Sequence record: MN895436.1
Origin: Escherichia phage teqsoen
Length of the DNA stretch: 64,000 nucleotides
Reading direction: 5' to 3' (one strand)
The number at the start of each line of letters is the position of its first letter. Positions within the stretch are counted from its first letter, which is position 1. The notes beneath the pieces were generated by a model. That model searched no databases, was not told the origin of the DNA, and worked only from the letters and a program-made list of their open reading frames with translations. The position numbers were made by a program, and so were the translations under genes. Of this stretch, positions 13,993 through 54,775 are shown piece after piece.

Positions 13993-14556
13993 TTACCATT
14001 CCAATGCTAGTTTTTTGAGTTGTTTCTGTTCTTTTACGTTCTTAGTCACTTCTTTCAAAAAATCATCCGTGACTAAACCTTTTAGTTCTTTTAATACTAA
14101 AGGAAGTTTTCCATTTTTAGTAAGAATTGATTTATAGTTAATTGCATCATTTGTATTAACTTGATACCGCTTAGCAAGTAACTTAATAATCAATACTTCG
14201 GTGGAATCTTCAACCAGTTTTGCCCATTTACCATATCTTTTACCACGAGGAACTGCAGCCATCAGATAATTAAAATGAGCTTCATCACTTAAGCCTGATC
14301 CAATTAAATTCATAGCATATACAGCTGGCATGCACTCTGGAAATTGTGATAATGCATTTTCAACCATGAATTTTGAATAATCTTTTTGAGCAATAGAGCA
14401 TTTAGTTTTATTATTAATAGCTCCAATTATTTCAAAAAATTCATTTTCAGCTTTTTCTTTAAAAGTATCAGCAGCAGATTGGACAGCTGTCCAATCTTTT
14501 GAATACCAAGCAACTTGATGCTCGTTTAATTGAATATCATCTTCAAATAAGCTCAT
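13993..14556 (-). CDS. 62: clamp loader small subunit (gene 62)
   Basis: 187 aa from [14 protein letters not shown]; ATG 1 nt after gp44 stop. Confidence 0.88.
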
Positions 14557-15568: not shown

Positions 15569-16255
15569 TTAAAAATCGTGGGTGGAATCAGCTTCAAGAG
15601 CTACTACATAATTCGCATGTTCACCTTCAAATTTAGCAGCGCCTTGTTTACCTTTTGCCCAAAGCAGAAGTTTATAATTTCCTGGTTGCATTTTCATATT
15701 TGCCATATTGATAATGAAATTAAATGTATTTTCACCATCATAATCACCAAGAGTCAAAGAATATTTAACACGAGTCAAAGCAGAATCTTCTACTTTATTA
15801 AAACCGTTAATTACGATTTTACCTTCTTTTACTGTGATAGCAATTGTATCAATCTGCAGACCACGAGATACACGCAACAGTTGTTGAAGGTCTTCAGCTT
15901 TAATTTCAGTAACAACAGATGCTACCGGGAATGGAATTGGTTTATTAGGAGCAACTACTGTACTCGGATCGGCTGCTGGCCAAAAAATTGTTGAACGGGC
16001 ATCAGCAATTTTAATATTTCCATCTTCTGACTGGGAAATTTCTGCATCATCATTAACTAGAGACAGAATACCGAGAAAACCGTTCAAATCGTAAATTGCT
16101 ACATCAAAATCAATAACGTCAGAAATATTTGCTTCCGCATAAGTTGTACCATTAACTGCGCGAGTCATAATAAATTGACCGGATTTAAGCATAATACCGG
16201 AGTTAATAGTAGCGAAATTTTTAAGCAGAGCAGTAGTATCTTTAGACAGTTTCAT
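15569..16255 (-). CDS. 45: sliding clamp (gene 45)
   Basis: 228 aa; T4 gp45 length and position. Confidence 0.92.
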   Translation of the reverse strand: MKLSKDTTALLKNFATINSGIMLKSGQFIMTRAVNGTTYAEANISDVIDFDVAIYDLNGFLGILSLVNDDAEISQSEDGNIKIADARSTIFWPAADPSTVVAPNKPIPFPVASVVTEIKAEDLQQLLRVSRGLQIDTIAITVKEGKIVINGFNKVEDSALTRVKYSLTLGDYDGENTFNFIINMANMKMQPGNYKLLLWAKGKQGAAKFEGEHANYVVALEADSTHDF

Positions 16256-52908: not shown

Positions 52909-53041
52909 AGTTTTGTGAAAAAATTTTTTAAAAAGTTTTGGGGAATTCTGGGGCAGGGAGGGGCAATTAAAGGATAGGATAATATATTATAACGGGTAGA
53001 AACTAAATGATGTCTGGAGAGGCCCAGAAAGGCCTAGATGC

Positions 53042-53069
53042 CAAAAAGCCCCAATCTTTCGGTCGGGGC
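53042..53069 (-). terminator. hairpin terminator
   Basis: GCCCCGACC-GAAA-GAUUGGGGC followed by T-run on minus strand. Confidence 0.7.
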
Positions 53070-53077
53070 TAAGAATG

Positions 53078-53551
53078 TTATTTGATTTGTTTAGCAGACC
53101 AAATGCGGTCTTTGATAATTTTTTGGATGTCTTCAACATACTCAAGAGAGTGAACATGTGGATTATCTTTGAAACTATGAGCTCGCGCAAGTTTCTGGCC
53201 TTCAGTTTTGATTACTAAAAGCTCTTTAAGGATAGCTTCATATTTGGAGATAATTCCTTTAACAATATTTTTCTCTTGTGCGACTTTAGGATCTGCTTTA
53301 GGAGCAGGTTTACCCGAAGCCTTTGCAAAAGCAGCGCCAGTAGCAACTAAACTTTTCCAGGCCATACTAACTGCATTTCCCGTAAATCCTTCCGCTTTCA
53401 TGTCGCGTGCGAACTGGAATCGCGATTCATCAGAAGCATCTTTATAGGAATATTTACCCGCTGCAATGGCTGCTTTTGCGACAGCTTGAATTTCGGTGCT
53501 AGATGCTTCATTTAACACCGCTTCATTTAAAAATTGAGTATATGATTTCAT
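53078..53551 (-). CDS. protein with capsid-targeting-like N-terminus
   Basis: 157 aa; N-terminus MKSYTQFLNEA; Ala/Lys-rich; TATAAATA upstream. Confidence 0.65.
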   Translation of the reverse strand: MKSYTQFLNEAVLNEASSTEIQAVAKAAIAAGKYSYKDASDESRFQFARDMKAEGFTGNAVSMAWKSLVATGAAFAKASGKPAPKADPKVAQEKNIVKGIISKYEAILKELLVIKTEGQKLARAHSFKDNPHVHSLEYVEDIQKIIKDRIWSAKQIK

Positions 53552-53591: not shown

Positions 53592-53599
53592 TATTTATA
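53592..53599 (-). promoter_or_regulatory. late promoter motif
   Basis: TATAAATA on minus strand about 40 nt upstream of ATG 53551. Confidence 0.55.
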
Positions 53600-53600
53600 C

Positions 53601-53628
53601 CAAAAAGCCCCAACCTTTCGGTCGGGGC
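53601..53628 (-). terminator. hairpin terminator downstream of tRNA/stable-RNA cluster
   Basis: GCCCCGACC-GAAA-GGUUGGGGC (9-bp stem) followed by T-run on minus strand. Confidence 0.75.
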
Positions 53629-53669
53629 TAAGCCTTGCGGCAACCTTGTCGGGGTTCCACCTGCTAAGG

Positions 53670-53943
53670 CAAGTGTTTGTACGAAACGCCGGGATTCGAA
53701 CCCGGTTATTAAGCAGTTGACGCTACTCAATATTTTTAAAAGGCCATATCTCGACCATATCCGAACGTTCCGTCAAAAACGCTACTCGGCTTACGGCAAA
53801 GATATTTCCTCGAATCGATAATTCGGTGCGCCGTTTCTGCTGTGATGTAAGAGGGCATCAATAAACGCAAGGATTATTAACGCAATTCCTTACTCAGGGA
53901 ACATCAGTCCGACGACTTGCCGGTAGCGACCCGGCTTCTTGTC
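53670..53943 (-). ncRNA. candidate structured stable RNA(s) with tRNA-like 3' domain
   Basis: T-arm-like CCGGG-TTCGAAT-CCCGG and 8-bp acceptor-like stem but no canonical cloverleaf or CCA; no ORF. Confidence 0.35.
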
Positions 53944-54019
53944 TGGTCGAGGCAGTAGGGATCGAACCTACGACCCAGGACTTAGAAGGTCCTTGCTCTT
54001 CCTTCTGAGCTATGCCTCG
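53944..54019 (-). tRNA. tRNA-Arg: tRNA-Arg (anticodon UCU)
   Basis: hand-folded cloverleaf, 76 nt, acceptor CGAGGCA/TGCCTCG, CCA encoded. Confidence 0.85.
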
Positions 54020-54023
54020 TATT

Positions 54024-54098
54024 TGGCGGACGTGATAGGATTCGAACCTATAACCAATCGCTTAACAGGCGATCGCTCTGCCATTGAGCTACACATCC
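54024..54098 (-). tRNA. tRNA-Asn: tRNA-Asn (anticodon GUU)
   Basis: hand-folded cloverleaf, 75 nt, anticodon loop CUGUUAA, T-loop TTCGAAT, CCA encoded. Confidence 0.75.
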
Positions 54099-54102
54099 AA
54101 AT

Positions 54103-54189
54103 TGGTGGGGAGTGGTGGAGTCGAACCACCCGAGTCGCAATGACAATGAATTTACAGTCCACACCGCTACCTCTACGGGATAACTCCCC
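54103..54189 (-). tRNA. tRNA-Tyr: tRNA-Tyr-like (anticodon GUA), class II
   Basis: 87 nt; perfect acceptor GGGGAGT/ACTCCCC, T-arm, variable-arm hairpin, loop CUGUAAA, CCA encoded; D-arm pairing imperfect. Confidence 0.6.
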
Positions 54190-54201
54190 TAATTCATAAT
54201 T

Positions 54202-54276
54202 TGGTGGCCCTGGGTGGAATTGAACCACCATCTGGCGATTATGAGTCGCTTGCTTGAACCTTCCAGCTACAGGGCC
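54202..54276 (-). tRNA. tRNA-Ile: tRNA-Ile (anticodon CAU, Ile by analogy with T4; could be Met)
   Basis: 75 nt cloverleaf, acceptor GGCCCTG/CAGGGCC, CCA encoded. Confidence 0.75.
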
Positions 54277-54277
54277 T

Positions 54278-54353
54278 TGGTGCTGATTGACGGAATCGAA
54301 CCGCCGACGTCCTCATTACAAGTGAGGTGCTCTACCTACTGAGCTAAATCAGC
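54278..54353 (-). tRNA. tRNA-Thr: tRNA-Thr (anticodon UGU)
   Basis: 76 nt cloverleaf, acceptor GCTGATT/AATCAGC, CCA encoded. Confidence 0.9.
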
Positions 54354-54359
54354 AAAAAC

Positions 54360-54449
54360 TGGCGGAGGCGATAGGATTTGAACCTATGAGTCGCCGGAGC
54401 GACTGCCGGTTTTCAAGACCGGTGCATTAAACCACTCTGCCACGCCTCC
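54360..54449 (-). tRNA. tRNA-Ser: tRNA-Ser (anticodon UGA), class II
   Basis: 90 nt with long variable arm, acceptor GGAGGCG/CGCCTCC, CCA encoded. Confidence 0.9.
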
Positions 54450-54451
54450 AG

Positions 54452-54525
54452 TCTCCATACAAGGATTTGAACCTTGGACCTCCTGATCCCAAATCAGGCG
54501 CTCTACCAAACTGAGCTACACGGAG
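54452..54525 (-). tRNA. tRNA-Pro: tRNA-Pro (anticodon UGG)
   Basis: 74 nt cloverleaf, loop UUUGGGA; acceptor stem has two G-U pairs; CCA not encoded. Confidence 0.75.
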
Positions 54526-54535
54526 TAAATTAAAT

Positions 54536-54609
<74 letters not shown>

Positions 54610-54614
54610 AAATT

Positions 54615-54701
54615 TGGTGCGAGAAGTGGGACTCGAACCCACAAGGAAATCATTCCGCAGCATTTTAAGTGCTGTGCCTTTACCAATTTGACCATTCTCG
54701 C
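54615..54701 (-). tRNA. tRNA-Leu: tRNA-Leu (anticodon UAA), class II
   Basis: 87 nt with long variable arm, acceptor GCGAGAA/TTCTCGC, CCA encoded. Confidence 0.9.
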
Positions 54702-54702
54702 G

Positions 54703-54775
54703 CTGGGAATAAAGGACTCGAACCTTTGCATCCTGGAATCAAAATCCAGTGCCTTACCAACTTGGCTAATTCCCA
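54703..54775 (-). tRNA. tRNA-Gln: tRNA-Gln (anticodon UUG)
   Basis: 73 nt; D-arm GCCAAGUUGGUAAGGCA as in bacterial tRNA-Gln; CCA not encoded. Confidence 0.85.

Follow-up and report, generated by a model that had tools for sequence, protein, structure and literature searches.

The interval 53670-53943 of a 64,000-nucleotide (nt) stretch of DNA from Escherichia phage teqsoen (sequence record MN895436.1; the whole stretch is called the window here) lies directly after a gene for an arginine transfer RNA (tRNA-Arg) and is, by sequence and synteny, composed of the orthologues of two small stable RNA genes of phage T4, namely rnaD (118 nt) and rnaC (139 nt). Coordinates are window positions throughout, and features are read on the minus strand. 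We consider it highly probable that the complete picture is correct: that these are the rnaD and rnaC orthologues, that rnaC adopts the fold described below, which is backed by covariation, that two of its loops kiss, and that both RNAs are excised from the tRNA transcript. The element itself is already known, since species 1 and species 2 RNAs have been known from T4 since the 1970s, some fifty years; any novelty would lie in the structural model and the wider family. An earlier note on this DNA, made from its letters alone, had suggested that the interval might correspond to the small stable RNAs of T4. This proved correct: it is about 97% identical to rnaD plus rnaC in the T4 record NC_000866. 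The same note treated the interval as a single element, and here it was mistaken, because there are two separate RNAs, located as follows.

53825..53942 (53942->53825), minus strand: orthologue of rnaD (species 2 RNA), 118 nt, aligned to T4 71053-71171 with one deletion.
53680..53818 (53818->53680), minus strand: orthologue of rnaC (species 1 RNA), 139 nt, 3' end ...CGUUUCGUA, aligned to T4 70908-71046.

In NC_000866, rnaD ('small, stable RNA; species 2 RNA') is annotated at 71053-71171, directly after tRNA-Arg, and rnaC ('species 1 RNA') at 70908-71046, six bases beyond rnaD. The window has the two sequences in the same order and place. Alignment to T4 gave 93% mean identity over 438 columns, a figure that includes the divergent tRNA-Arg; rnaD and rnaC are nearly identical. 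The near-identity runs from just past tRNA-Arg through the terminator, and the two tRNA-Arg genes diverge more. The window rnaC is homologous to T4 rnaC over its full length (covariance model R1, 160.9 bits), and is the distal member of the tRNA transcription unit, encoded on the same strand as the tRNAs and ahead of an intrinsic terminator. The window rnaD is likewise homologous to the T4 gene and starts 2 nt past the CCA of tRNA-Arg. The two phages therefore agree in the order of features (tRNA-Arg, rnaD, a 6-nt spacer, rnaC, trailer, terminator), in strand, and in lengths (118/119 and 139 nt). They differ by a few substitutions, in the 3' end of rnaD, which is ...CACC followed by G in the window and CACCA in T4, and in the tRNA set, which in the window lacks segB and tRNA-Ile and includes Met, Tyr and Asn tRNAs. 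RNA-seq and a Northern blot have again shown both RNAs in T4, where they were assigned to the late RNAs (PMC9697503); the tRNAs are transcribed together with them, and the transcript ends after species I RNA (PMC2330249).

A segment of 401 bases spanning the interval is 100% identical to Yersinia phage phiD1 (Tequatrovirus). Close matches to these 401 bases occur in 720 phage records, and the interval is conserved in 801 phage records. The phiD1 record has no annotation over the interval, and many others have a 'hypothetical protein' or a tRNA there. In the GenBank features under three of our matches (H92, H187 and H193) the 3' two-thirds of rnaC is labelled as a tRNA, and 'hypothetical protein' open reading frames (ORFs) lie over rnaC or rnaD in many others. 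Both kinds of label are probably mis-annotations, and the re-identification of two known RNAs is a useful annotation correction for phiD1 and for many T4-like records.

Homologues of rnaC were recovered by distant BLAST, by pattern scans of IMG/VR and with a covariance model, giving 27 distinct sequences in the alignment, and 29 once the homologues from Jiaodavirus were added. Folded as a single sequence, rnaC has a minimum free energy (MFE) of -50.2 kcal/mol with z = -4.55, and none of 200 shuffled sequences was as good, so it is structured beyond chance. In this fold the 5' end pairs with the 3' end. RNAalifold gave the same four-way junction from each of two versions of the RNA separately (types A and B, described below) and from the 27 distinct sequences together. 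Pair counting on a MAFFT alignment of the 27 found 97.9% of cells paired, with 16 compensatory pairs, which none of 500 shuffles matched; slid controls reached only 33-47% pairing. With the Jiaodavirus homologues included, there are 29 compensatory pairs. The agreement of MFE fold, RNAalifold and pair counts suggests that rnaC is a four-way junction consisting of a terminal stem, two arms designated P2 and P3, and a T-arm. The predicted parts are listed here, with nt counted within rnaC.

53811..53818, minus strand: 5' strand of the terminal stem, UCGAUUCG, nt 1-8, covarying with nt 131-138.
53681..53688, minus strand: 3' strand of the terminal stem, CGUUUCGU, nt 131-138, directly after the T-arm with no gap.
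53808-53810 and 53741-53743, minus strand: junction helix A9-G11 / C76-U78, 3 base pairs (bp), carrying P2.
53746..53806, minus strand: arm P2, nt 13-73, a long hairpin of irregular structure placed where a D-arm would be (RNAalifold).
53771..53776 (53776->53771), minus strand: P2 hexaloop UUGACG, nt 43-48, exact complement of the P3 hexaloop CGUCAA (53722->53717).
53707..53732, minus strand: arm P3, nt 87-112, a 10-bp stem with hexaloop CGUCAA at 53717-53722 and compensatory change in 10 of 10 pairs.
53689..53705, minus strand: T-arm CCGGG-UUCGAAU-CCCGG, nt 114-130, whose middle stem pair covaries (UA in 13, GC in 12, CG in 2).
53677..53679, minus strand: CAA following A139 of rnaC, in the place of CCA and invariant in 29 of 29 homologues.

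The terminal stem covaries among the 29 sequences at 4:135 (GC in 18, AU in 11) and at 7:132 (CG in 27, UA in 2). It contains a conserved tandem U.U, which in Jiaodavirus is replaced by U-A and A-U, together with a change of C-G to U-A; the Jiaodavirus stem is fully Watson-Crick from position 2 inward, and in one of its homologues (L250) position 1 is paired too, giving a perfect 8-bp terminal stem, ACGGUAUG/CAUACCGU. The junction helix is also exchanged in a Jiaodavirus homologue, which has CAC/GUG in place of AGG/CCU. The helices of P2 (helices 2-4) are 97-100% paired, with compensatory change in 14 of their 16 pairs. An A-rich linker of 9 nt separates the P2 junction helix from P3, and P3 is joined to the T-arm by one unpaired nucleotide, A113.

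The T-arm that the earlier note had read is real and canonical, having a 5-bp stem and a UUCRANY loop; it lies at 53705->53689 on the minus strand. That note was also right that there is no CCA, the 3' strand being followed by ACAA instead. Its statement that there is no cloverleaf has to be amended: neither ARAGORN nor Rfam finds a canonical tRNA here, but there is a cloverleaf-like four-way junction closed by the two ends of the 139-nt RNA. Conserved structure in related phages, whose absence the note considered telling, was found: the rnaC fold covaries across 29 homologues. The invariant CAA is kept whether a tRNA, an ORF or a terminator lies downstream; it may belong to the mature RNA, or be a signal for processing or CCA repair. 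The T-loop is UGCAUCC or UGCAUGC in Serratia phage LC53 (L003) and in three IMG/VR contigs (L010, L030 and L035), all of which retain the 5-bp stem and 7-nt loop.

The hexaloops of P2 and P3 are fully complementary in 29 of 29 sequences, and occur in three variants. Both are invariant in most genera, while Marfavirus-like phages have UUGGCG with CGCCAA and Jiaodavirus has UUGCAG with CUGCAA. This amounts to covariation at 47:105 (A-U, G-C and C-G) and at 48:104 (C-G and A-U). The kissing pairs are absent from the covariance model, and the alignment is therefore not biased toward them. The chance of two given hexaloops being complementary is about 1 in 4096. Because of this low chance and the covariation, it is likely from the sequences that the loops of P2 and P3 kiss.

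The same loop-loop complementarity could act in trans to make dimers or multimers of rnaC, as in phi29 pRNA, and both the complementarity and the covariation fit pairing within and between molecules alike. P2 is about 25 bp-equivalents long and P3 only 10 bp, so that, to judge from the fold, a kiss within one molecule would need a sharp bend in P2. However, several bulges and internal loops in P2 could bend, and the A-rich linker frees P3. In addition, the length from nt 1 to the nucleotide before CAA has been held at 139-143 nt despite complete turnover of the P2 sequence, and this tight conservation suggests a closed intramolecular geometry. We regard pairing in trans as an unlikely variant of the model. 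A larger departure would be to read rnaC as a class II-like tRNA that has degenerated, or as a pseudo-tRNA, extended by 45 nt at its 5' end, with ACGGAACG as the 5' acceptor strand, UCGGAUAUGGUCGA as the D-arm and P3 as a long variable arm. This builds on the 8-bp acceptor-like stem proposed in the earlier note. Its 5' strand is as follows.

53766..53773, minus strand: ACGGAACG, nt 46-53, which the comparative model assigns to the 3' part of the P2 loop and to the apical stem of P2.

This strand (53773->53766, 60 nt upstream of the T-arm) can indeed pair with CGUUUCGU (53688->53681) in the window, over eight positions comprising seven Watson-Crick pairs and one G.U, but it is not the pairing supported by comparison. 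The internal pairing (nt 46-53 with 131-138) shows no compensatory change at all, and of the 27 sequences 14 carry a mismatch at 49:139, 8 at 50:138 and 4 at 53:135. A G/A polymorphism within the strand is instead accommodated where U42 pairs with G49 or A49 to close the apical stem of P2, and more generally substitutions in nt 13-73 are compensated inside P2. The internal acceptor stem is accordingly ruled out as a conserved pairing, by the absent covariation and the mismatch in 14 of 27; on this comparison it was probably mis-assigned, as the 3' strand covaries with the 5' end of the 139-nt RNA. There are some signs of a tRNA in this region. Rfam has a weak tRNA-Sec match that uses the internal pairing (16.6 bits against a gathering score of 47, E = 1.8), ARAGORN calls a 'tRNA-Phe' or 'tRNA-Met' of 95 nt over the same part of rnaC in three relatives, some GenBank records label a tRNA there, and P3 adjoins the T-arm through a 1-nt linker, like a class II variable arm. 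(The ARAGORN calls, tRNA-Phe(GAA) or tRNA-Met over the 3' two-thirds of rnaC, are at 7816-7911 in L042, 573-668 in L126 and 8491-8585 in L088.) Against these, ARAGORN makes no call within 53670-53943, the canonical tRNA model RF00005 has no match there at E <= 10, and Rfam is blank even in the relatives where ARAGORN calls a tRNA; type B homologues have neither the internal strand nor the D-arm-like sequence, and a 7-nt anticodon loop is absent. A degenerate tRNA is thus quite improbable, and the best reading of the internal cloverleaf is as a look-alike, or possibly as a remnant of descent from a class II tRNA.

A T-arm and a 3' strand resembling that of an acceptor, both close to the 3' end and preceded by a large insertion, might also point to an intron-containing or split tRNA gene, or a gene like that for transfer-messenger RNA (tmRNA). 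The models for group I and group II introns, tRNA and tmRNA are all below threshold, and removing the middle leaves two halves that make no tRNA. ARAGORN finds no tmRNA, the Rfam tmRNA models reach 9-10 bits, the third pair of the terminal stem is G-C where tmRNA has G3.U70, and there is no CCA or tag reading frame. The T4 annotation, moreover, keeps the whole 139 nt in the mature RNA. We give this explanation hardly any credence, and the suggestion in the earlier note of a degenerate or intron-containing tRNA finds no ARAGORN, Rfam tRNA, tmRNA or intron match at a meaningful score. The bacterial Y RNA-like family YrlA (RF02553) has no match in the interval at E <= 10, and its weak matches in related loci fall on true tRNAs. 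It is equally hard to believe that the interval encodes small proteins, or is a structured 3' untranslated region or terminator region with no product of its own. Mechanical ORFs of 34-50 amino acids (aa) do overlap it, and many records have 'hypothetical protein' features under the match; but substitutions track base-pairing and not codons, the strand and frame of the ORFs vary between records, homologous T4 DNA yields discrete stable RNAs (PMC9697503), and rnaC can lie between tRNAs, where no mRNA 3' end is expected. The earlier note saw no ORF here and a terminator hairpin beyond, and we agree: the only ORFs over the interval are mechanical ones of 24-50 aa, and the hairpin is at 53629->53606. 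The preferred explanation remains that of two T4-like stable RNAs, with rnaC folded as a junction closed by its own ends.

Among known RNAs, the closest design to rnaC is the tRNA-like domain of tmRNA. In both, the ends form an acceptor-like stem stacked on a canonical T-arm just ahead of the 3' strand, and the rest of the molecule, with pairing of the pseudoknot type, is inserted at the place of the D and anticodon arms; rnaC differs in lacking G3.U70, an encoded CCA and a tag ORF, and in being only 139 nt long. With class II tRNAs and tRNA-Sec (8/5) it shares an 8-position stem, a 5-bp T-stem and a long arm joined to the T-arm by a 1-nt linker, but it has no D-arm, 7-nt anticodon loop or CCA. 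The eukaryotic mascRNA from MALAT1 is a near-canonical cloverleaf that is cut from a longer transcript by tRNA-processing enzymes. It resembles rnaC as a tRNA-shaped element within a longer transcript, and by analogy the mimicry would likely serve excision and stability; the difference is that rnaC replaces two arms with a kissing pair. The pRNA of phi29 is, like rnaC, a phage small RNA with two complementary loops that covary among relatives. In pRNA the loops pair between separate molecules, which in this way form a ring on the packaging motor; to our knowledge, T4 packaging needs no RNA.

rnaC was found in at least ten genera of T4-like phages of Enterobacterales, namely Tequatro-, Mosig-, Gapriver-, Karam-, Winkler-, Gelderland-, Kanagawa-, Moon-, Marfa- and Jiaodavirus. 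The Jiaodavirus homologues lie beyond the reach of BLAST and were found by the covariance model only, at 72.9 and 67.9 bits. The middle third of the RNA comes in two versions that cannot be aligned with each other, designated type A and type B, yet the total length stays at 141-146 nt including CAA. In Karam-, Gelderland-, Moon- and Winklervirus rnaC is flanked by a tRNA gene on either side, and in Jiaodavirus it comes after the last tRNA of a block. The identity of the upstream tRNA varies (Trp, Met, Pro or Phe). The distance from its 3' end to nt 1 of rnaC is 5-6 nt in Karam-, Gelderland-, Moon- and Jiaodavirus and 8 nt in Winklervirus. Either RNA can be present without the other: Dhakavirus IME08 carries rnaD alone, and in most other genera only rnaC is present.

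A pattern for the 3' domain of rnaC had no match in 185,579 bacterial and archaeal genomes (species representatives). A two-anchor pattern scan of metagenomes returned at least 120 stretches, all of them chance matches by nhmmer filtering, with no new homologue among the matches listed; the first pattern used on viral contigs also gave mostly chance matches, together with 12 true homologues. In regions anchored on gp4, the covariance model gave a real match in Jiaodavirus alone, and nothing convincing in Morganella phage Rgz1, Proteus phage PM2, Acinetobacter phage MD-2021a, E. coli phage C6, IME08 (Dhakavirus), Aeromonas phage AS-zj, Klebsiella phage p4515 or Cronobacter phage leB. Rfam was searched with the window and four related loci at gathering and at permissive thresholds, and contains no family matching rnaC or rnaD; the covariance-model search that the earlier note had proposed as a check therefore assigns neither RNA. 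Two side observations were made in these genomes. Rgz1 (L248) and PM2 (L249) have several gaps of 150-440 nt, with ORFs of 40-60 aa, between their tRNA genes, which the rnaC model does not match and which could hold other unannotated small RNAs. Acinetobacter phage MD-2021a (L251) has at 14198-14272 a tRNA with a CUA anticodon, amber-reading and annotated as tRNA-Pyl, and near it, at 15628-15864, an ORF of 78 aa annotated as peptide chain release factor 2.

For rnaD, a consensus fold from 14 distinct homologues begins with a leader of 7 nt, followed by a small 5' hairpin and then by a long, irregular one.

53919..53935, minus strand: rnaD 5' hairpin, a 5-bp stem with invariant loop GUCGCUA, whose closing pair covaries (AU in 9, GC in 4).

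The long hairpin has an invariant basal stem, GUCGUCG with CGGCG(C)AC, that ends one nucleotide from the 3' end, and a hypervariable tip. The most conserved parts of the RNA are the internal-loop strands GGACUGAU and CACAGCAGAAAC. As a single sequence the fold is mildly unusual (z = -1.81), and no tRNA-like feature was found in the window rnaD. The T4 rnaD ends in ...CACCA, followed by a 5-nt spacer before rnaC, and in this resembles the 3' ends of tRNAs in these clusters. Hammerhead (CUGANGA...GAAA) and kink-turn motifs in rnaD were checked by eye and rejected, as the strand topology and key positions do not fit. Pairing between rnaD and rnaC was also considered; there is a match of only 5 nt, which was dismissed as chance. 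A terminator-like site on the plus strand at 53919-53935 is the rnaD 5' hairpin read from the opposite strand, followed by a T-rich run. In an evolution study from 2025, a T4-like phage was adapted to a semi-permissive host, and every line came to carry the same single-nucleotide polymorphism in rnaD, at about position 41 (PMC12685909). This hints that rnaD and rnaC affect host-specific fitness, and it is the only hint of function that was found.

We propose that rnaD and rnaC are both excised from the polycistronic tRNA transcript. The rnaC terminal stem adjoining the T-arm would present the minimal shape for RNase P and for the enzymes of tRNA maturation that act on the 3' end and the T-loop. 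Such an acceptor/T-arm mimic may recruit tRNA maturation, with RNase P cutting at nt 1 followed by 3' trimming, and recruitment of this machinery would make rnaC as stable as a tRNA. The constant gap of 5-6 nt after the upstream tRNA resembles tRNA-tRNA junctions. Between rnaD and rnaC, the A/U-rich spacer GAAUUA is likely, by analogy, to fit an RNase E site; we take it to be the RNase E-type site of the 'p2Sp1' precursor from the Apirion laboratory.

As rnaC lacks an anticodon loop and an encoded CCA, it would not serve as a decoder. The kissing module of P2 and P3 would be its functional face in place of an anticodon, and probably binds a protein or a second rnaC molecule. The most likely role for rnaC, though no more than a guess that we hold to be rather doubtful, would be that of a tRNA mimic which occupies or titrates a tRNA-binding factor during infection. 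Our tentative suggestion is that rnaC represents an uncatalogued, phage-only family with a tRNA-shaped junction, in which arms kissing through 6 bp replace the D and anticodon arms and form a compact module on an acceptor/T-arm handle; the RNA would be either a tRNA mimic that binds a tRNA-handling factor of host or phage, or self-associating. Few gene products of T4 still lack a function, and rnaC and rnaD are two of them (PMC3014915, PMC9697503). Comparison supplies three handles for experiment: the terminal stem (instead of an internal acceptor), the kissing loops with their covariation, and the CAA tail that never varies. If the fold has not been described before, it offers concrete, testable mutants for the fifty-year-old question of species 1 RNA.

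A number of points weigh against the overall interpretation. The transcript evidence comes from T4 only. The terminal stem is not a textbook acceptor, because it has a conserved tandem U.U and in 22 of 29 sequences an outer U.U; with the T-stem it makes 13 layers, not 12, and there is no encoded CCA. A few relatives carry a non-canonical T-loop, so its sequence is not universally required. Only two independent lineages (Marfavirus-like and Jiaodavirus) contribute to the covariation of the kissing loops. These may instead pair between molecules, and it is sterically uncertain that they can meet within one. The putative roles of RNase P and RNase E draw on analogy and on T4 work of the 1970s-80s. 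Deletions over the tRNA region of T4 are viable in laboratory hosts.

The remaining features of the locus are as follows.

53944..54019, minus strand: tRNA-Arg(UCU), last of a ten-gene cluster, with encoded CCA (ARAGORN; Rfam tRNA model, 65.8 bits).
53819..53824 (53824->53819), minus strand: spacer GAAUUA between rnaD and rnaC, 6 nt, A/U-rich, placed by coordinate transfer from T4.
53630..53676, minus strand: 3' trailer from rnaC to the terminator, with three small hairpins, conserved in Tequatrovirus only.
53596..53629 (hairpin 53629->53606), minus strand: intrinsic terminator of the tRNA/rnaD/rnaC unit, with a 10-bp stem, GAAA loop and U tract (terminator scan).

ARAGORN finds ten tRNA genes, running from 54775 down to 53944 (Gln, Leu, Gly, Pro, Ser, Thr, Met, Tyr, Asn and Arg), nine of which are recovered by Rfam at the gathering score. 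As all are on the minus strand, transcription runs toward lower coordinates, and the interval (53943->53670) is downstream of tRNA-Arg. The cluster (53944-54775) has neither segB nor tRNA-Ile, and has the Met, Tyr and Asn tRNAs between Thr and Arg. An arrangement with these three tRNAs has been reported for T2L, RB1 and RB3, whose tRNA-Asn carries the target of the SegB homing endonuclease (PMC2330249).

The terminator hairpin is duplicated, at 53038-53073 and 53597-53632 (36 nt, 94% identical). Between the two copies there is an ORF of 157 aa (53078-53551, minus strand), preceded by a sequence resembling a T4 late promoter, TATAAATA. No ORF occupies the corresponding site in T4, and in Yersinia phage fPS-90 it holds ORF g136c, between two annotated terminators. 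The 157-aa ORF looks like a gene cassette inserted between repeated terminators.

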